Under the pieces are notes generated by a model. That model was not told the DNA's origin, did no database searches, and worked only from the letters and a program-made list of their open reading frames with translations. A program made the position numbers and the translations under genes. Positions 51,233 to 62,773 of a DNA stretch of 64,000 bases are shown one piece after another. The stretch comes from an uncultured Planctomycetota bacterium. GTDB taxonomy: Bacteria; Planctomycetota; Planctomycetia; Isosphaerales; Isosphaeraceae. The stretch is from assembly GCA_963845755.1 (NCBI GenBank), contig CAWJTV010000012.1, positions 128,001 to 192,000 on the forward strand. The letters are read 5' to 3'. Every line of letters starts with the position of its first letter. The first letter of the stretch is position 1.

Positions 51233-52746
51233 GCTGACTCGGGCCCGCTGTCGGTGGTCGGTTGTTCGTTCAGATACCGACTGCCCAGGAAGCGGGGCGT
51301 CTGGGGCCGAAGACCGAAAGTTGAGGGCCGAGGTTGATCCGGAATCCGGAATCGAGAATCGAGAATCCGGAATCGGGAATCCGGAATCCGGAATCGGGAA
51401 TCGGGAATCCGGAATCGGGAATCCGGAATCCGGAATCCGGAATCCGGAATCCGGAATCCGGAATCCGGAATCGGGTTCGTCCAGGCCCTCAGCTCAACTC
51501 GCCGTCCCCGAGGCGCGTCCTGCCCCCACTTCCCGGCGAACCGTCGCTCATTTTCCTCCAGCAGCGCCGACGCGTCGACCCCGTTGCCGACGAACGTCCG
51601 GCTGCCGAAGTGGTGGACGAACAGATCCTTCGCCACGGCCAGCTCGAACCCGCCACGACGCGCACGCACGGCCAGGTCGTCATCATCGAACAACCCCAAC
51701 CCGAACCGCTCGTCCAGCCCGCCGACGGCGTCGTAGACCGCCCGCGTCAAGAGCAGGCAGAAGCCCGACAGCTTCCCCACCGTGAACCACTGCCCGCGAT
51801 GCCGATCGCGCCACCGCCGGGCGAAGGCGTGCATCTCGTCCAGGTCGCGATACGGCACACTCTCGACCCCTTGCGGCGGCGCGGCGTAATTCGACATCGG
51901 CCCGGCCAGGCCGATCCGGTTCGGAACGGGTCTCTCGACCGCACCCGGGGAAGGAAAACGGGGACTGGCTCCCGGCCCAAGATAATCGGGGCTTTCGCGC
52001 GAACGATCGGCTGAGGCCGGGTGCCTGTCCCCGTTTTCCGCGAGAGTGCCGCCCCGCATCGCGCTCGGCGCGGGTCTCCCGCTCGGCACAGGTCTCCCGA
52101 CCCCATCGCTGCCCGAACCGGCGGTCTCCCGATCCTCCGTTCCCACTCGCACCGCCGTCAACGCGATGAGCTGATCGAGCCACGCATCGGTGACGACCGC
52201 GTCATTGTTGAGCAAGACGAGGTACTCACCACGTGCGGCCTGCAAGCCCTGGTTGATGGCCCGCGGAAACCCGACGTTCCGGGCATTCGCGATGATCGTG
52301 ACCGGCACGCCCGCCGCGTCCTGGACTCCGGCCAGGTAATCGCCGGTCCCATCGGTCGAGCCATTGTCGATGACGATCAACTCCCACGGCCGGCGCGTAT
52401 GGCGCAACAAACCCTGGACGCACAGCCGGGTGAACTCGCGCTGGTTCCAGCAGGGGACGATGATCGAGGCCAGGCCCCGGACCGCGGACACCTTGGGGTC
52501 CGGTGAGGGATCACGAGGATCCGCTTCCTGCCCACGTTCGAGCGTCCTCACCTTCCCAGGCGCGCACGATCCCTCGCGGAGGGCCGGCCCCACGGGCCGC
52601 GCCAGCGATCCGCTCCCCGCCTCGGCATTCCCCAGCACGAACACCTGCCCCTCGCGGTCGAACAGCGCGCACGGGGTCGCCACCGGCAACCGACTGGCCC
52701 ACTTGCGGGCGAACACCCGCGCACTGCGAACGAACGACTCGGTCAA
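51229..52746 (-). CDS. GT2 glycosyltransferase domain
   Basis: SIIVPCWN..IDNGSTDGT..NVGFPRAINQG..LLNND..LSGFCLL..GGLDERFGLGLFDDDD. Confidence 0.88.
   Translation of the reverse strand: MTESFVRSARVFARKWASRLPVATPCALFDREGQVFVLGNAEAGSGSLARPVGPALREGSCAPGKVRTLERGQEADPRDPSPDPKVSAVRGLASIIVPCWNQREFTRLCVQGLLRHTRRPWELIVIDNGSTDGTGDYLAGVQDAAGVPVTIIANARNVGFPRAINQGLQAARGEYLVLLNNDAVVTDAWLDQLIALTAVRVGTEDRETAGSGSDGVGRPVPSGRPAPSAMRGGTLAENGDRHPASADRSRESPDYLGPGASPRFPSPGAVERPVPNRIGLAGPMSNYAAPPQGVESVPYRDLDEMHAFARRWRDRHRGQWFTVGKLSGFCLLLTRAVYDAVGGLDERFGLGLFDDDDLAVRARRGGFELAVAKDLFVHHFGSRTFVGNGVDASALLEENERRFAGKWGQDAPRGRRVELRAWTNPIPDSGFRIPDSGFRIPDSRFRIPDSRFRIPDSRFRILDSRFRIPDQPRPSTFGLRPQTPRFLGSRYLNEQPTTDSGPESA
51341..51473. 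repeat. Heptamer tandem repeat, 19 x (G/A)GAATC(C/G/T-like variants)
   Basis: 133 bp = 19 units of GGAATCC/GGAATCG/AGAATCG/AGAATCC, counted directly. Confidence 0.95.
51953..52039. repeat. REP-like palindrome (GGGGACTGGCTCC...GGTGCCTGTCCCC family) inside the GT2 gene
   Basis: GGAAAACGGGGACTGGCTCCCGGCC ... GGCCGGGTGCCTGTCCCCGTTTTCC. Confidence 0.75.
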
Positions 52747-53429: not shown

Positions 53430-53539
53430 TTTCAAAACGGGGACTGGCTCCGAGTCTTCGAGGTGCCTGTCCCCCTTTTGAAACGGCACCTCCAAAACGG
53501 GGCCTGGCTTCGAGTCTTCGCCGTGCCTGTCCCCTCTTT
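53430..53539. repeat. Two tandem REP-like palindromes (same family as 51953)
   Basis: AAAACGGGGACTGGCTCCGAGTCTTCGAGGTGCCTGTCCCCCTTTT and a second, degenerate copy. Confidence 0.75.
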
Positions 53540-55421: not shown

Positions 55422-55795
55422 CGGAACCGCCATCTCGGTCCAGCCGGTTTGTTCACGGGAGGGGCAAAAGGGGACATTGCTGAATGCCATTAAGTTAAGC
55501 GTAAAGACAGATTCTAATTGCACTTAGGGTCGATCTCCCCGGCTCCAATCAGAAATAGTTTAGATATGTTAATTTGATTCTCAGAGCGAAAACACCCTGG
55601 ATCCAAGCCGCATGGAATGATCTAGATATCAACATACTTATAAAATCGCCGAAAACATGCTCGACGCAAGCCGTTTGGAGATCAGGAGTTAAACTTAACT
55701 TAATGCCATTCGGGACATTGCTAATTCCCCCCGCAGGCTGGACAATTTGGGTAAACCCATGATCTCTTCCCTCCCCCATGAGTCTCGGTGAGCCC

Positions 55796-56338
55796 ATGCC
55801 TCGAACCGCAAGAGCTTGCTCGGCCGGATACACCTACCATGTCCTCAATCGCGGCAACGCACGTGCCGAGGTGTTCCACAAGTCCGACGACTACGACGCG
55901 TTCGTCGAGATGATGGCCGAAGCCTCCCTCCGCACCCCGATGCGCATCCTGGCCTACTGCCTCATGCCCAATCACTTCCATCTGGCGCTCTGGCCCCGCG
56001 CCGACGGCGACCTCAGCCGCGGGATGCATTGGCTGATGACCACCCCAGTGCGCCGCTACCTGCGACACTATCACTCCAGCGGCCATGTGTGGCAAGGCCG
56101 GTTCAAGGCGTTCCCGACCGAGGAAGATGAGCGAGACTGGGTCGAGGGCGTCAACATGGCGATGACCGAGGCCGAAGTGGAGCAGGTGCGCGAATGCGTG
56201 CGCCGCGATCGGCCGTACGGCTCGGCGGCCTGGACGACAGCGACCGCCCGGAGCCTGGGGCTGGAGTATAGTCTCCGGCCCCGCGGTCGTCCGCCAGCCA
56301 CGGACCCGGCCACGCCGAACGGGAAAGGTCCCTGTTGA
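55796..56338 (+). pseudogene. REP-associated tyrosine (HUH Y1) transposase with internal deletion
   Basis: YHVLNRGN, AYCLMPNHFHL, GHVWQGRFKAF; the following Y..RNP catalytic segment is absent. Confidence 0.8.
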
Positions 56339-56608
56339 AGCTCGCTGAAAAACGGGTGTGTGTCGCATGGTTTTGCCGACCTAAGGCGGATACGGATTTC
56401 CCAGACTCTGCAGTTCAACCAGATCTCGCAATCCTCGTCAAGATTTAGGGATGTCCCCTGGTATGTGGCGAAGTGAGGTACTAAAGATTCTTGACCAGCA
56501 ACAACAGGGGGGCCTGGGGGGGTCAAGGATCTTTTCTACTGAACGCCCGAGCAGACTTCCAGAATGGGAGTTGGGTCTCTTCTCAACTCGATTCGGAGGT
56601 CCTGTTCC

Positions 56609-58183
56609 ATGGCTACCAAGTCCCCGTCGAAGAACCGTCGCCCGTCGCAGCCGCATGCCCTTCATAAGCCTCGGGGGGTCATTCACCCGCGCGTCCAAGC
56701 GGTCGGACCGGAGCACTTCGGCTTGGTGTGCGTCGATTGCGCCAAGGCACGCTCCCGGATGATGTTCGCCGACTTCTACGGCCGAGTCCTGCTCGAGCCG
56801 ACCACCGTCGAACACAACCGATCCGACTTCGAGACCGCCGTGACGTCGGTTCGCGCGGCCATGGCCCGGCACGGCATCCGGGAGGTGATCGTGGTCGTCG
56901 AGCGCACCGGTCGCTATCACGGCCCGGTCCAGCGCAGCTTCCGCAAGGCGGGGTTCGAGGTCCGCATCGTTCATCCTTACACCACCAAGCAGTATCGACT
57001 CCCCGCCGACCCCGGCAACAAGACCGACGACACCGACCTCTCCGCCATCCACCGCGCCGCCGTCAACGGCTTCGGCCTGCTGGAGCCCGAACCCGACCCG
57101 GTCTATGCCCGACTCCAACTGCTGGCCAGGCACCGCCGCACCTCGGTGCAAAAGCGAGTCGTCCTCCAACAGCAGATGCTCGAGCATCTTCAATCGTTCA
57201 TGCCAGGATACTCGAAGTGCGTCGGCGATCTCTTCGGTTCTCCGGCCATCCTCTGGGTGGCCAGGGACCTCGGCTCGGCCGCGGCGATCGCCCAGATCGG
57301 CCTGGCCGGCTTGAGCCAACAGGTTCGACAGGCCGGCCTCCGAGTGTATCGGTCCACCCTGGAAAAGATCGTCGCTTGGGCCCGGTCGGCACCGTCGGCC
57401 GAGGAACCGGCGTCGCTCCATCACCGCATCTTCCTGGAGCTCGACGCCGACCAGGTCGCCAAGGCTCAAGCCATCCAGGCGGTCGAGGGTGACCTGGCCG
57501 GGCTCTTGGCCGGGACGCCCTACCTGCTCCTGCTGGGCATCGTCGGGATCAACGTGGTCTCGGCCGCCGAGTTCGCCGGCGAGATGGGGCCGATCGAGCG
57601 CTACACCAAGGCCCGAGCGATTACGGGCCGCGCCGGGTTGTTCCCCTCGCGGTACCAGAGCGACCAGGTCGATCGTCGCGACGGTGCGCTGGTCCGACAC
57701 GCCAATCGCGACCTGCGATCCGCCATCCTCACGATTGCAGATAACTTGATCAAATGCAATGATCACTTCGCGGTCCTGGCCGCGGGATGGCGGCTCAGGG
57801 GCAAGGACGCCCGTAGCGTCCGTGTCCAGGTCGCCGGTCGGTTCTGCCGGATCGCCTACCAGATGGTAGCCGGTCGGATGACCTTCCAACACCCCTGCGC
57901 TCAGCAGCGGGATCCCATCCTCGATAAACTGATCAGGTTTTCTCTTGAGCATATCATTCCACCTGATCAGCTCTCGCGAAACCTCGACGCCGCAGTGGCC
58001 CAACTCCCGCACACGGCGCATCGTGAGGAAGCGGCCGCTGTGGCGGAGGAGCTGGCTCGGGTCCCGAAATCGCGGGGAACGGGACCGCGCCAGCTAGACA
58101 CGATTCTCCCCGCCATCTTGGCCAAACTGGAGGGGAACCTGGTAAGATCACCGGAGTCAGGGGAGGCTGATCCCACAGAGTGA
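56609..58183 (+). CDS. IS110 DEDD recombinase with C-terminal extension
   Basis: VDCAK, VVERTGRYH, NKTDDTD, IVGINVVSAA..AGE, AGLFPSRYQSD; GGAGG RBS at 56595. Confidence 0.92.
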   Translation: MATKSPSKNRRPSQPHALHKPRGVIHPRVQAVGPEHFGLVCVDCAKARSRMMFADFYGRVLLEPTTVEHNRSDFETAVTSVRAAMARHGIREVIVVVERTGRYHGPVQRSFRKAGFEVRIVHPYTTKQYRLPADPGNKTDDTDLSAIHRAAVNGFGLLEPEPDPVYARLQLLARHRRTSVQKRVVLQQQMLEHLQSFMPGYSKCVGDLFGSPAILWVARDLGSAAAIAQIGLAGLSQQVRQAGLRVYRSTLEKIVAWARSAPSAEEPASLHHRIFLELDADQVAKAQAIQAVEGDLAGLLAGTPYLLLLGIVGINVVSAAEFAGEMGPIERYTKARAITGRAGLFPSRYQSDQVDRRDGALVRHANRDLRSAILTIADNLIKCNDHFAVLAAGWRLRGKDARSVRVQVAGRFCRIAYQMVAGRMTFQHPCAQQRDPILDKLIRFSLEHIIPPDQLSRNLDAAVAQLPHTAHREEAAAVAEELARVPKSRGTGPRQLDTILPAILAKLEGNLVRSPESGEADPTE

Positions 58184-58366
58184 CCATCCGGACCAGGGGC
58201 CGAACAACGTCGAATCTGTCCCCAAGGCGCAAAGCCGTGGAAAAGCGTGGCGCTCTGTCTCGGATCACCAACGTCGGATAAGGCTGTGTGGGGTCACTCC
58301 CCTGATAAACCAGTATGGCGAGACGTGATCCCTGACGAGACAGAGGTGGCCCCTGGTCGGGATTGG
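58184..58366 (+). ncRNA. Putative bridge/seek RNA of IS110 copy 1
   Basis: Closing stem CCGGACCAGGGGCC/GGCCCCTGGTCGGG. Loop 1 has TGTCCCC + GGAAAAG (target); loop 2 has GGCTGT + ACCAG (donor). Confidence 0.8.
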
Positions 58367-58491
58367 CCATCAAACGACATCTGTAAAACCCGCCGGTTCG
58401 GCGGGGATAGGGATCGTCCGTACATAGGTCCCAAATCGGCATCACGCCAATTCCCACATGGCTGTCTTTTCCCTTTCAAGGGATGTCCCCT

Positions 58492-60496
58492 GGTATGTGG
58501 CGAAGTGAGGTACTAAAGATTCTTGACCAGCAACAACAGGGGGGCCTGGGGGGGTCAAGGATCTTTCTACTGAACGCCCGAGCAGACTTCCAGAATGGGA
58601 GTTGGGTCTCTTCTCAACTCGATTCGGAGGTCCTGTTCCATGGCTACCAAGTCCCCGTCGAAGAACCGTCGCCGTCGCAGCCGCATGCCCTTCATAAGCC
58701 TCGGGGGGTCATTCACCCGCGCGTCCAAGCGGTCGGACCGGAGCACTTCGGCTTGGTGGCGTCGATTGCGCCAAGGCACGCTCCAGGATGATGCTCGCCG
58801 ACTTCTACGGCCGAGTCCTGCTCGAGCCGACCACCGTCGAACACAACAGATCCGACTTCGAGACCGCCGTGACGTCGCTTCGCGAGGCCATGGCCCGGCA
58901 CGGCATCCAGGACGTGATCGTGGTCGTCGAGCGCACCGGTCGCTATCACGGCCCGGTCCAGCGCAGCTTCCGCAAGGCGGGCTTCGAGGTCCGCATCGTT
59001 CATCCTTACACCACCAAGCAGTATCGACTCCCCGCCGACCCCGGCAACAAGACCGACGACACCGATCTCTCCGCCATCCACCGCGCCGCCGTCAACGGCT
59101 TCGGCCTGCTGGAGCCCGAACCCGACCCGATCTATGCCCGACTCCAACTGCTGGCCAGGCACCGCCGCACCTCGGTGCAAAAGCGAGTCGTCCTCCAACA
59201 GCAGATGCTCGAGCATCTTCAATCGTTCATGCCAGGATACTCGAAGTGCTTCGACGATCTCTTCGATTCTCCGGCCATCCTCTGGGTGGCCAGGGACCTC
59301 GGCTCGGCCGCGGCGATCGCCCAGATCGGCCTGGCCGGCTTGAGCCAACAGGTTCGACAGGCCGGCCTCCGAGTGTATCGGTCCACCCTGGAAAAGATCG
59401 TCGCTTGGGCCCGGTCGGCACCGTCGGCCGAGGAACCGGCGTCGCTCCATCACCGCATCTTCCTGGAGCTCGACGCCGACCAGGTCGCCAAGGCTCAAGC
59501 CATCCAGGCGGTCGAGGGTGACCTGGCCGGGCTCTTGGCCGGGACGCCCTACCTGCTCCTGCTGGGCATCGTCGGGATCAACGTGGTCTCGGCCGCCGAG
59601 TTCGCCGGCGAGATGGGGCCGATCGAGCGCTACACCAAGGCCCGAGCGATCACGGGCCGCGCCGGGTTGTTCCCCTCGCGGTACCAGAGCGACCAGGTCG
59701 ATCGTCGCGACGGTGCGCTGGTCCGACACGCCAATCGCGACCTGCGATCCGCCATCCTCACGATTGCAGATAACTTGATCAAATGCAATGATCACTTCGC
59801 GGTCCTGGCCGCGGGATGGCGGCTCAGGGGCAAGGACGCCCGTAGCGTCCGTGTCCAGGTCGCCGGTCGGTTCTGCCGGATCGCCTACCAGATGGTAGCC
59901 GGTCGGATGACCTTCCAACACCCCTGCGCTCAGCAGCGGGATCCCATCCTCGATAAACTGATCAGGTTTTCTCTTGAGCATATCATTCCACCTGATCAGC
60001 TCTCGCGAAACCTCGACGCCGCAGTGGCCCAACTCCCGCACACGGCGCATCGTGAGGAAGCGGCCGCTGTGGCGGAGGAGCTGGCTCGGGTCCCGAAATC
60101 GCGGGGAACGGGACCGCGCCAGCTAGACACGATTCTCCCCGCCATCTTGGCCAAACTGGAGGGGAACCTGGTAAGATCACCGGAGTCAGGGGAGGCTGAT
60201 CCCACAGAGTGACCATCCGGACCAGGGGCCGAACAACGTCGAATCTGTCCCCAAGGCGCAAAGCCGTGGAAAAGCGTGGCGCTCTGTCTCGGATCACCAA
60301 CGTCGGATAAGGCTGTGTGGGGTCACTCCCCTGATAAACCAGTATGGCGAGACGTGATCCCTGACGAGACCGAGGTGGCCCCTGGTCGGGATTGGCCATC
60401 AAACGACATCTGTAAAACCCGCCGGTTCGGCGGGGACAGGGATCGTCCGTACATAGGTCCCAAATCGGCATCACGCCAATTCCCACATGGCTGTCT
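58492..60496 (+). mobile_element. IS110-family element, copy 2 (recombinase 58640..60212, 5' indels)
   Basis: Same ends and CT cores (58490-91, 60495-96); several amino-acid differences from copy 1 in the N-terminal half. Confidence 0.9.
60213..60395 (+). ncRNA. Putative bridge/seek RNA of IS110 copy 2
   Basis: Near-identical to 58184..58366, with the same guide segments. Confidence 0.8.
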
Positions 60497-60506
60497 TTTC
60501 CCTTTC

Positions 60507-60530
60507 AAGGGATGTCCCCTTTTCCCTTTC
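60507..60530 (+). repeat. Intact (empty) unit of the 24-bp IS110 target repeat
   Basis: AAGGGATGTCCCCTTTTCCCTTTC; split copies flank both IS110s. Confidence 0.85.
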
Positions 60531-60685
60531 AAAACGAGCCGGCTTCCTCGGAGAAGGCCCAGGCGGGCTCGCTCACAGTTCCGGAGCGAGACGAGCTCGA
60601 TGAGTACATCGCGGTGGCCGACCACTTGGCCATCCTCCGATCCCAAGCCCGCCGGGCCTTGGAGCCCGCCAAGCCTTCGTCGTGA
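60531..60685 (+). pseudogene. 5'-truncated duplicate of antitoxin 54481..54732
   Basis: GCCGGCTTCCTC..GGAGAAGGCCCAGG..GAGCGAGACGAGCTCGATGAGTACATC matches about 54570-54730. Confidence 0.8.
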
Positions 60686-61104
60686 ATCCCATGCGCATCC
60701 GCACGAACCTCGTCCGGCGAGTGAGGGCGCGAGCAAGGGGACGGCGTGAATACTGTCATCTTCCCCAGGCGCCCTACAGGCTCATCTTTCCCCTCGATCA
60801 CATCCTCGCTAGCCAGCAAGGCGAAAGGACGCAGAGCGATAACCTGGGGGTCGTGTGACCGCGATTCAACCGGAACAACGGACCGAACATAGCTGGATCC
60901 GGCATCCGTAAACGTGAGATTATCAGGCTCTTTCATCCGCGTCGCGATCGGTGGGTGGATCACTTCCTGTGGCGTGGATCGCAGTTGATCGGCTTGACCC
61001 CAATCGGCCGTGCGACCATTCGCGTCCTCGCGATCAATCACCCCGATGCGATCAAGGTCCGGAGGGAGTTGATGGCCGAAAGCCTTTTCCCGCTTGATGA
61101 ATAA
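60682..61104 (+). pseudogene. HNH endonuclease pseudogene
   Basis: RARGRREYC..LDHI..DNL..*PRFN..RLFHPRRDRWVDHF.W..GLTPIGRATIRVL.IN; TGA at 60856 and lost Cys ligands. Confidence 0.8.
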
Positions 61105-61465
61105 ATCGGCTCCTCGGGGTCTCGGGCTCCTGGCGAACCCATGCCTGGCACCGCCTCGGGCAGATACACCGACTTCTGCTCCAGCAACGACCGCACTGAC
61201 GTGTTTCATGACACGGACCTCTGCGTGACACGGACTTCTGCTCTGTTTATTAAGGCTCTCCTGAGAAAGTGACAGCGCAGTTGTCATGTCATGACCCTGA
61301 CGTCTGCAAAGACGCCCTGTTCGCCCTGATGATCGCCGAGAGAAACTGGAAATAGGTCTGACCCAATCGCTCCTAATGTCTCTATTCTCCTCGCGCTCCG
61401 CGAAGACGATGAAGGTACGCGTTCAATCTCCCGTCCCAAGACCTACATGGCAGCCTTTCTTTCCT

Positions 61466-62773
61466 TCATCGCTCCCCCGTTAACGGCTTAGGCAACTCTC
61501 GAAGCGCGTCGGCCACGTCCCACAGTTTGATCGTATGATCCTTACTCGCCGTCGCCAGGAGCTTGCTGTCGGGAGAGAAAGCCAGGGAACGAATGAGCTT
61601 CTCATGGCCCTTCACAACAAGGGGCCGTCCGTAAGTCGTCGTCTCGATGAATCGGAGCATCCCGTCGGCGTCGCCCGTGGCGAGCAGCTTTCCGTCGGGA
61701 GAGTAGGCCATGCTGGTCACTGTCTCCTTATTCCCCGGCAAAGTACGCCACACCTCATTCGTGACCAGGGACCAAACTTGGACGTTGCCGGCAGCGCCCG
61801 GGGCAGCCAGGAACCTGCCATCGGGTGAGAATGTCAGGGTGTCCACTGGACCCTTGTGACGCTTGAGGACGGCCCTTTGTTCCCAAGTCTTGGTATCCCA
61901 TAAGACGATTGATCCTTCGTTCGTCGTGGCCAGGGTCGTGCCGTCCCGTGAGAACGCCACGTCGTCGCTGAATGGGAGACAGAAGGGGAGACTTCCGTTC
62001 CCGAGCGCTGCTCGAAACCGTTGGGAGGCGACGTTCCAGAGGAGGATTCGTCCTTCGAGGCCAGCAACGGAGATCAGCAGGGTCTTTCCGTCAGGAGAGT
62101 ACTCGAGACAAAAGACGATATCCGCAGTCTTGAGGATCACCCTCCGATTTCCTGTCGTAATGTCCCAGAGCTCGACGGTTTCATCCGGGATGTACCTTTG
62201 GTTGCCACGCTTATTAGGACGGTAAGACGAGCTCGTGGCCACAGTCTTGCCATCAGGAGAAAAGGCCAGATTTCGAATCCTCGTATTCCTCTTCGTGAAG
62301 ATGTCCCGCTGCCGACCGCTGGGGATCTCCCAAAGCCTCATCGTATCATCGCCATGGCTTCCCCCGGCCGAGACCAAGAGCTTACCGTCCGGCGAAAAGG
62401 CCACACCTCCTTCGACAGCATCCGTGTGTCCGCGGAGGACAGCCCGCGGCCGTAGATATTCCGCTTGGGCCTGGAAAGACTCCGAGACGAGGGCCAGGAA
62501 TCCCGTGAGCACTGCAAGTCGTCGAAGTTGGGGAAGGCCCGAGAAAGAACGTGTGGCCGGACGTTGTGCCCTCACGTCCGGCGACAGCCCTCGTCGAGAC
62601 CGTGGCGCTTCAACTCCCCGGGAAGGATTGATGATCATGATCGCCGCTCCAAAAAAACGGGCCGAGATTGCGTTAGTACCGTCGGCGTCAACAGGTGTTC
62701 CTGGCGAACTTATAGAGCCGAATAGAGCGAAATAGAGACACATCAAGAGCGGCTTACAGCGAACTGGAGGCAT
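61466..62773 (-). CDS. WD40-repeat protein (7-blade propeller)
   Basis: Seven GH..AFSPDGKLL..LWD-type repeats; intact frame. Confidence 0.9.
   Translation of the reverse strand: MPPVRCKPLLMCLYFALFGSISSPGTPVDADGTNAISARFFGAAIMIINPSRGVEAPRSRRGLSPDVRAQRPATRSFSGLPQLRRLAVLTGFLALVSESFQAQAEYLRPRAVLRGHTDAVEGGVAFSPDGKLLVSAGGSHGDDTMRLWEIPSGRQRDIFTKRNTRIRNLAFSPDGKTVATSSSYRPNKRGNQRYIPDETVELWDITTGNRRVILKTADIVFCLEYSPDGKTLLISVAGLEGRILLWNVASQRFRAALGNGSLPFCLPFSDDVAFSRDGTTLATTNEGSIVLWDTKTWEQRAVLKRHKGPVDTLTFSPDGRFLAAPGAAGNVQVWSLVTNEVWRTLPGNKETVTSMAYSPDGKLLATGDADGMLRFIETTTYGRPLVVKGHEKLIRSLAFSPDSKLLATASKDHTIKLWDVADALRELPKPLTGER

Follow-up and report, generated by a model that had tools for sequence, protein, structure and literature searches.

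A long IS110-family insertion sequence with a candidate bridge RNA downstream of its recombinase gene in an uncultured planctomycete

Background

Bridge RNAs (in IS110 elements) and seekRNAs (in IS1111 and IS110 elements) are established as guides of insertion sequences: they carry two loops and pair with both DNA strands around a CT core, the targets of IS621 are repetitive extragenic palindromic (REP) sequences, and recombination in the IS110 family has been shown experimentally to need the RNA (PMC11208160, PMC11187229). The present analysis concerns a comparable locus in an uncultured planctomycete of the Isosphaeraceae (GenBank assembly GCA_963845755.1), where two copies of one element lie in direct repeat within a 64,000-nucleotide (nt) stretch of contig CAWJTV010000012.1 (positions 128,001 to 192,000 of the forward strand). 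This whole stretch is referred to as the window, and coordinates given without a contig handle are counted from its first base. An earlier interpretation of the DNA, made without database searches (the sequence-only reading), had proposed an IS110 bridge-RNA system. The evidence presented here indicates that the element is very probably an IS110-family insertion sequence that chooses its target by means of a bridge RNA (seekRNA) encoded just after the recombinase gene.

Described transposases are 330-350 amino acids (aa) long in IS1111 and 315-455 aa in IS110 (PMC11187229), and a 2026 review puts both groups at ~300-456 aa (PMC13604230). Siddiquee et al. mentioned IS110-type elements whose non-coding region lies downstream (PMC11187229). 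Copy-out transposition, proposed in a preprint (10.1101/2025.10.25.684509), would fit a build-up of element copies. Literature searches on IS110 elements of Planctomycetes and on C-terminal extensions of bridge recombinases listed no paper on the clade described below; the supplementary tables of PMC11208160 and PMC11187229 may include it, or the IS110-type group whose non-coding region is downstream.

Results

Structure of the locus

Inspection of the sequence of 56200-60800 and alignment of its two halves showed two direct-repeat copies of one element, both on the + strand. Copy 1 (56460-58465, 2006 bp) was intact, its boundaries being set by comparison of the four full copies in the genome; copy 2 (58492-60494, 2003 bp), apparently the older, contained a broken recombinase gene. 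Both began GGTATGTGGCG and finished CCCACATGGCTGT, and each was flanked at both ends by a CT dinucleotide (56458-56459 and 58466-58467 for copy 1, 58490-58491 and 60495-60496 for copy 2). The sequence upstream of copy 1 was TTTAGGGATGTCCC-CT, while the 26-base spacer between the copies (58466-58491) comprised CT, TTTCCCTTTC (the right half of unit 1), AAGGGATGTCCC (the left half of unit 2) and CT. Downstream of copy 2 there was CT-TTTCCCTTTC, followed by an uninterrupted unit, AAGGGATGTCCCCTTTTCCCTTTC. Excision of both elements in silico left tAGGGATGTCCC-CT-TTTCCCTTTC and then two copies of AAGGGATGTCCC-CT-TTTCCCTTTC, i.e., three 24-bp units. It was therefore correct, as had been proposed, that three tandem units are present, that the first two are interrupted at the same CT and that the third (60507-60530) is empty, with the qualification that unit 1 is imperfect at its left edge (TTTAGGG vs TCAAGGG). 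The genome had no more than three perfect TGTCCCCTTTTCC sites, of which the empty unit contained one.

In this genome and among relatives, CT was present at both junctions of every copy inspected, without further target duplication; the table of extracted guides and flanks used below required CT by regular expression and so is not an independent test of the core. A left subterminal inverted repeat, ATGTGG (56463-56468), had its partner CCACAT at 58454-58459. These 6 bp were perfect, with an imperfect extension beyond, and the Singulisphaera relatives carried ATGTAG and CTACAT, changed on both sides. The non-coding ends measured 104-149 bp on the left and 282 bp on the right. Contigs from four soil, peat or wetland sequencing runs contained relatives that were ~90-99% identical; these contigs broke off near 56449-56458 and 58470-58472, as contigs would be expected to do where a repeated element starts and finishes. 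A probe joining the right end, CT and left end had 0 matches at 26 nt and 0 at 18 nt in the assembly, a search that is uninformative either way about circles. In one relative (L041, ~90-117), the first 14 bases of the left end were tandemly duplicated (GGTATGTGGCAATT twice).

A structured RNA downstream of the recombinase gene

The candidate bridge RNA occupied 58181-58376 on the + strand, ~195 nt directly after the stop codon. Within an outer stem lay one arm for binding the target and another for binding the donor, each of which consisted of a stem, an internal loop and a small inner hairpin. The fold of 58184-58366 (183 bases) had an energy of -85.8 kcal/mol (z = -4.67), and none of 200 shuffled sequences was as stable. 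Relatives for comparison came from a scan of one genome per species, which gave 58 related loci with 44-83% protein identity, mostly from Planctomycetota and many from Isosphaeraceae or Singulisphaera. The consensus fold of 24 non-redundant relatives contained 35 pairs, with 98% of cells paired and compensatory change at 9 pairs; 0 of 500 shuffles matched this, and when partners were slid by 1-3 columns only 42-55% of cells were paired. A covariance model built from these relatives scored 188.6 bits for 58181-58376 and, in 52 of the 58 loci, placed the RNA immediately 3' of the gene and in its orientation (the 24 loci of its own building set being among the 52). In two of the other six the contig ended just after or inside the gene (L063, L069), and the remaining four were partial gene matches (L041, L062, L076, L078).

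The two loops were indeed similar: the 5' side of each contained CAACGTCG(A/G)AT and the 3' side (G/A)TGGCG. Four guide segments were identified on the + strand, each beginning at exactly the base given in the sequence-only reading. In the first loop, UGUCCCC (58217-58223) had the same sense as the top strand of the left flank, and GGAAAAG (58239-58245) was the reverse complement of CT plus TTTCC. In the second loop, GGCUGU (58282-58287) had the same sense as the right end of the element, and ACCAG (58309-58313) was the reverse complement of CT plus GGT at the left end. These are termed the left target, right target, left donor and right donor guides respectively. The guides and both ends of copy 2 were identical to those of copy 1.

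A GC-rich hairpin lay at 58386-58405, ~10 nt past the RNA match. Judged by eye, relatives retain this hairpin with stems of other sequence, and it might represent a 3' end or a signal for processing.

Covariation of guides with flanks and element ends

Loop segments, flanks and element ends were extracted for 51 related loci and the four local copies, and the mean longest exact match of true pairs was compared with 5000 shuffles of guide classes. For the left target guide and left flank (48 elements, 18 classes), the observed mean was 6.27 against 4.63 when shuffled, and 0 of 5000 shuffles were as high; the longest exact match was at least 6 nt in 36 of the 48 elements. The right target guide and right flank (51 elements, 22 classes) produced 4.90 against 4.30, with 1 shuffle in 5000 as high, and the left donor guide and right end (51 elements, 11 classes) produced 5.57 against 3.97, with none as high. 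For the right donor guide and left end (47 elements, 11 classes), the values were 5.74 and 5.19, and 212 of 5000 shuffles were as high. Hence, three of the four tests were clear while the last was weak.

Matched changes in individual elements showed the same relationship. The fourth base of the right end was T, G or A in step with the left donor guide, both reading GGCTGT, GGCGGT or GGCAGT. In L029, L030, L031 and L054 the guide ACCAG was replaced by UUUCAG, and the three of these with readable left ends (L029, L030 and L054) began GAAAT rather than GGTAT, thereby matching the altered guide. Similarly, the target guides TGTCCCC, CTGACCCC, TTCCTCT, CGTGTCT and GTCGCC each adjoined flanks of that sequence. 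In one genome, L058 alone had the guide TTATCCCC and occupied a TTATCCCC site, while its sister L059 had the guide TCATCCCC and occupied a TCATCCCC site. Both the covariation across homologues that the sequence-only reading had called for and the bispecific RNA that it had described were thus borne out, by guide segments that vary with flanks on one side and element ends on the other.

Two groups of elements concerned the position of the junction relative to the guide. L022 and L024, two of four copies in one metagenome-assembled genome, occupied AGATCAGAC(C)T / CT-TAC sites that seemed unrelated to the guide by exact match, yet a shifted register fitted at 7/8 and 6/7 positions; in our own reading, both fit the guide provided that the crossover takes place at an earlier C in its C-run. 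The Singulisphaera elements L032-L037, L052 and L066 shared one guide, AATGTCCCCGT, and their left junctions read ATGTCC-CT, ATGTCCC-CT or ATGTCCCC-CT; the position of the crossover apparently shifts along the C-run.

These patterns could in principle arise if the site were recognised through protein-DNA contacts alone, the structured region being an element of the 3' untranslated region (a stabiliser, terminator or regulator) and not a guide. Several results can be set against RNA guidance, some of which suit this alternative directly. No RNA was observed: none of the listed sequencing runs was recorded as RNA, and the 20 with matching sequence were metagenome contigs of soil, peat or wetland origin, whose shares did not exceed 0.15. 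There was no match to Rfam 15 at E <=1 over 55500-61500 and no promoter in a sigma-70 scan of 56400-58520, where the single terminator-like site lay on the minus strand inside the gene and was no better than chance. The left half of the target (GTCCCC) is alike in many relatives, so that a conserved protein preference could mimic part of the signal, and shuffling of guide classes leaves shared ancestry among the elements in place, for which reason the individual cases of covariation weigh more than the tests. The left target guide had an exact match of 5 nt or less in 12 of 48 elements, and the poorly matched sites of L039 (2 nt) and L028 (4 nt) are unexplained. Besides the weak result of its test, covariation of the right donor guide was confined to one lineage. 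Throughout the 24 aligned RNAs, the core T faces A in the left target guide and the core C faces G in the left donor guide. Finally, the recombinase scored 118.7 bits with the NCBIfam model of IS110 family RNA-guided transposases (NF033542; residues 55-436, model positions 2-339 of 343), which is beneath the cut-off of 140; this was interpreted as the mark of a divergent member and not as evidence against the family. Nevertheless, recognition by protein alone is highly improbable. It would have to accommodate four separate RNA segments changing in step with four separate DNA segments, among them alterations of one base at the right end of the element itself and an altered left end, each accompanied by an altered guide. 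It would also set the protein apart from the enzymes solved with such an RNA, of which it is a structural homologue (see below), and from a family in which a requirement for RNA has been demonstrated by experiment (PMC11208160, PMC11187229).

The recombinase

The recombinase gene (56564-58183, + strand) encodes 539 aa if translation starts at the ATG at 56564 and 524 aa if it starts at the ATG at 56609; in public annotations most relatives are given 524 aa. Residue numbers follow the longer form. Matches to PF01548 (residues 56-214, E 6.9e-20) and PF02371 (residues 322-402, E 1e-10), together with the fold of IS621 and ISCro4, confirmed the proposed IS110-family identity. D58, E113, D155, D158 and S366 were invariant across 19 aligned relatives. 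A sequence search against solved structures led to the IS621 and ISCro4 transposases, and in the alignment to IS621, E113 corresponded to the glutamate of IEATG, D155 and D158 to positions in NKTDTVD, and S366 to the serine of PRRYES. An AlphaFold2 model from the 19-relative alignment had a mean predicted local distance difference test score (pLDDT) of 79.3, and its top Foldseek matches were again IS621 and ISCro4 (E ~4e-10; 3.9e-10 to 8wt9). With VIA-align, model residues 51-447 were placed on residues 4-321 of IS621; Z was 17.6 for both IS621 and ISCro4, with 299-301 of 306-308 residues aligned and a sequence identity of 17-18%. The root-mean-square deviation was high (~11 Å) because the domains are placed differently.

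The IS621 fold stops short of both termini of the model (residues 51-447 of 539), which leaves ~50 residues at the N-terminus and 92 at the C-terminus as extra relative to IS621; the middle region is longer also. The description of a large, C-terminally extended protein of 524 aa was accordingly upheld. The C-terminal extension (residues 448-539; 57905-58180, + strand) comprised four predicted helices that are absent from IS621, and was conserved to the last residues in all 19 aligned relatives. Structure prediction had been recommended for this part: the helices appeared in the whole-protein model, but the C-terminal 100 residues folded alone produced a poor model (pLDDT 60, predicted template modelling score 0.33). 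Searched alone, the C-terminal part had 55 matches, only to IS110-type proteins and mostly of 521-527 aa. At E <=0.001 it was represented in 175 representative clusters, always C-terminal, in proteins ~514-536 aa long or in shorter pieces.

Copies and solo RNA modules elsewhere in the genome

According to the sequence-only reading, insertion of other copies into unrelated sites would have spoken against a programmed target. In the 14.3-Mb genome, all other copies, full or truncated, occupied related xxGTCCC-CT / CT-TTTC sites. The copy on C1 was flanked by TTCCGTCCC-CT and CT-TTTCACGCC, the copy on C34 by CCGCTCCC-CT and CT-TTTCCTCTCC, and the truncated copy on C47 by GTTATGTCCC-CT. The last of these (C47:225159-225470) broke off after 287 bp, with an inverted target half, GAAAAGGGGACATAAC, coming immediately after it, and may have arisen by deletion or inversion between two inverted sites.

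The covariance model identified seven copies of the RNA in the genome, four within full elements and three without a recombinase gene (C29:192347-192543, C34:350340-350533 and C18:17119-17312). The solo RNA on C34 still followed the last codons of a decayed gene. That on C29 scored 176.7 bits and had the donor-loop segments of the active element in combination with another target guide, TGACCCC. Acting in trans, such orphan RNAs, of which that on C29 is an example, may direct the active element towards a further set of sites.

One insertion or two

The two tandem copies had diverged unequally. Copy 1 differed from the C1 copy at 4 positions and had 2 changes of its own, while copy 2 had 14 private substitutions (13 in the first 780 bp) and three single-base deletions, two of which lay in the coding part, such that its longest frame (58788-60212) begins after D58. 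Four related elements were used as an outgroup. At sites 297, 421, 778 and 1163, copy 2 kept the state of at least three of these four, while copy 1 and the copies on C1 and C34 shared a derived state. Since copy 1 shares derived states, and groups, with distant copies in the genome, the sequence comparison favours two separate insertions over a local duplication. The older copy 2 would have entered unit 2, and the younger copy 1, belonging to the active lineage, would later have entered unit 1, leaving unit 3 still empty; some gene conversion would have taken place between the neighbouring copies after the second insertion.

A single insertion followed by local duplication would account for the arrangement in another way. 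Unequal crossing-over or slippage between 24-bp repeats would have duplicated the element plus 24 bp, and the differences would have arisen later or by gene conversion. The repeat unit, element plus 24 bp, is the exact product of unequal exchange between flanking units. Moreover, the two copies have T in common at site 1226, where the C1 and C34 copies have C, and from position 779 onwards only 3 sites distinguish them. These features count against two insertions, and the state of site 1226 together with the concentration of copy 2 changes in the first 780 bp suggests that gene conversion has blurred the history of the copies. A duplication is nonetheless unlikely. It leaves the asymmetry between the copies (14 substitutions and 3 deletions against 2 changes), and the four sites with the outgroup state in copy 2 and the derived state in copy 1 and the C1 and C34 copies would require later conversion of copy 1 by a distant copy. 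The adjoining unit is, moreover, a perfect target for an active element, and tandem or clustered target copies lie beside other insertions also.

Target repeats and the RAYT-like gene

The elements are preceded by a Y1 transposase gene resembling those of REP-associated tyrosine transposases (RAYT; 55778-56338, + strand, PF01797 E 1.5e-12), although it scored 43.3 bits with the NCBIfam RAYT model (NF047646), below the cut-off of 80. The gene lies between inverted arms of 17 nt that are 82% complementary (55469-55485 and 56443-56459), the right-hand one being target unit 1. Homologues of the Y1 gene were present at three other places in the genome. On C47 (224480-225445), the truncated element copy started ~25 bp past the last aligned residue of the homologue; on C27 (323412-324126), a perfect empty site, oriented as the upstream arm, lay beside the homologue; and on C34 the homologue was broken by stop codons. 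Thus, of four Y1 loci, two had an element copy directly 3' and one adjoined a perfect empty site. For other insertions, both here and in relatives, the site was the right arm of a long palindrome, GAAAAGGGGAC...GTCCCCTTTTC.

The family of targets was small: there were 12 GTCCCCTTTTC sites in 14.3 Mb, where 5.6 were expected from base composition, and 3 perfect 13-mers. Locally, 6 sites with no more than 2 mismatches to TGTCCCCTTTTCC occurred in the window against 1.3 expected, and 0 of 100 shuffles reached 6. The targets are described as the arms of a small REP-like family flanking RAYT-like genes, where 'REP-like' refers to arrangement and not to abundance. This keeps the earlier suggestion of a REP-like target family as regards the inverted arms beside RAYT-like genes, the family itself being only about as large as just stated. 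Of the near-matches that had been listed, those at 52026 and 55464 (minus strand) were within 2 mismatches, whereas those at 53468 and 53527 differed at 3 positions or more.

A second target copy, often in tandem, was observed ~15-50 bp from many insertions (C1 near 284440, and the right flanks of L021, L034, L046, L057, L059 and L061). We know of no mechanism by which the element would create extra target copies. Upstream of the Y1 gene there was also a 23-nt inverted repeat (55482-55504 and 55689-55711), 87% complementary, with 184 nt between its arms.

Discussion

The organization of the locus suggests a mechanism in which the RNA would be produced from the region after the gene and bound by the recombinase. 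In loop 1, the partner of UGUCCCC would be the bottom strand of the left half of the target, and that of GGAAAAG the top strand of the core and right target half; GGCUGU and ACCAG in loop 2 would pair likewise with the right and left ends of the element, which would be linked through CT in a circle or a copied-out form. The DEDD/serine recombinase would hold both DNAs on the RNA and exchange strands at CT, and the element would land between TGTCCC-CT and TTTCC. Because strand exchange would occur at the shared CT, no duplication beyond it would result. Homology and covariation together suggest that this is a 'programmable' recombinase, as had been supposed.

The locus is of interest in several respects. 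All four guide-DNA pairings of a bridge RNA are readable from one natural locus, where occupied, apparently older occupied and empty targets are found side by side. The clade is sizeable, to judge from the 175 clusters. Compared with the enzymes now being engineered, its members are ~200 residues longer, with conserved extensions, and combine an IS1111-like placement of the RNA with an IS110-like order of guides; they are candidates for learning the role of the extra parts and how much register slippage the C-run of the guide tolerates. The locus also links two mobile systems, in that an RNA-guided insertion sequence appears to live on the repeats of RAYT-like genes. It is tempting to go further and recognise a distinct long-form (~524 aa) subgroup of bridge recombinases, defined by conserved extensions, a downstream RNA with IS110 guide order and specialisation on RAYT repeats, with orphan RNAs retargeting the element in trans. 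Its length falls outside the 300-456 aa of characterised IS110 and IS1111 enzymes, but the proposal as a whole is a tentative one, and we consider it rather less probable than its negation.

Among described systems, the element resembles IS621 and ISCro4 in having a fold that covers the whole of IS621, the DEDD and serine residues and the CT core. It shares with them a target loop followed by a donor loop and, within each loop, a 5' segment in the sense of the top strand and a 3' segment complementary to it. It differs from both in that the RNA lies after the gene, in the right end, whereas theirs lies in the left end. It differs from IS621 in length also, for the IS621 protein has 326 aa (328 aa in the PDB chain) and the present protein 524 or 539 aa. 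Like those of IS621, its targets are of REP type (PMC11208160).

With the IS1111 elements ISEc11, ISPa11 and ISKpn4 it shares a long downstream non-coding region, subterminal inverted repeats and site-specific insertion, according to the descriptions in PMC11187229. The GL-P----S motif of IS1111 is also present, as GLFPSRYQSD, but ends in SD and not in SG or TG (PMC11187229). The IS1111 subterminal repeats are 7-17 bp long, against 6 perfect bp here that extend imperfectly, and the IS1111 proteins (330-350 aa; PMC11187229) are far shorter than 524 or 539 aa. In IS1111 the segment complementary to the top strand is 5' of the segment complementary to the bottom strand; here the order is reversed, as in the IS110-type ISEc21 (PMC11187229), since the 5' UGUCCCC equals the top strand and the 3' GGAAAAG is complementary to it. 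Membership of IS1111 was considered and not adopted, in view of the protein length and guide order and despite the downstream RNA.

For REP targets combined with solo RNA modules, the closest parallel on record is ISPpu9 of Pseudomonas putida (PMC12288879), an IS110-family element that likewise occupies REP sequences, has a small-RNA gene downstream of its transposase gene and is accompanied by additional solo RNA modules. However, its downstream RNA, Ssr9, was dispensable for transposition, whereas the downstream RNA here carries the guide segments; the likeness drawn here is one of description. Neither the IS110 nor the IS1111 subgroup fits this element cleanly; it is a clear new and unusually long example of a kind of system that is already known.

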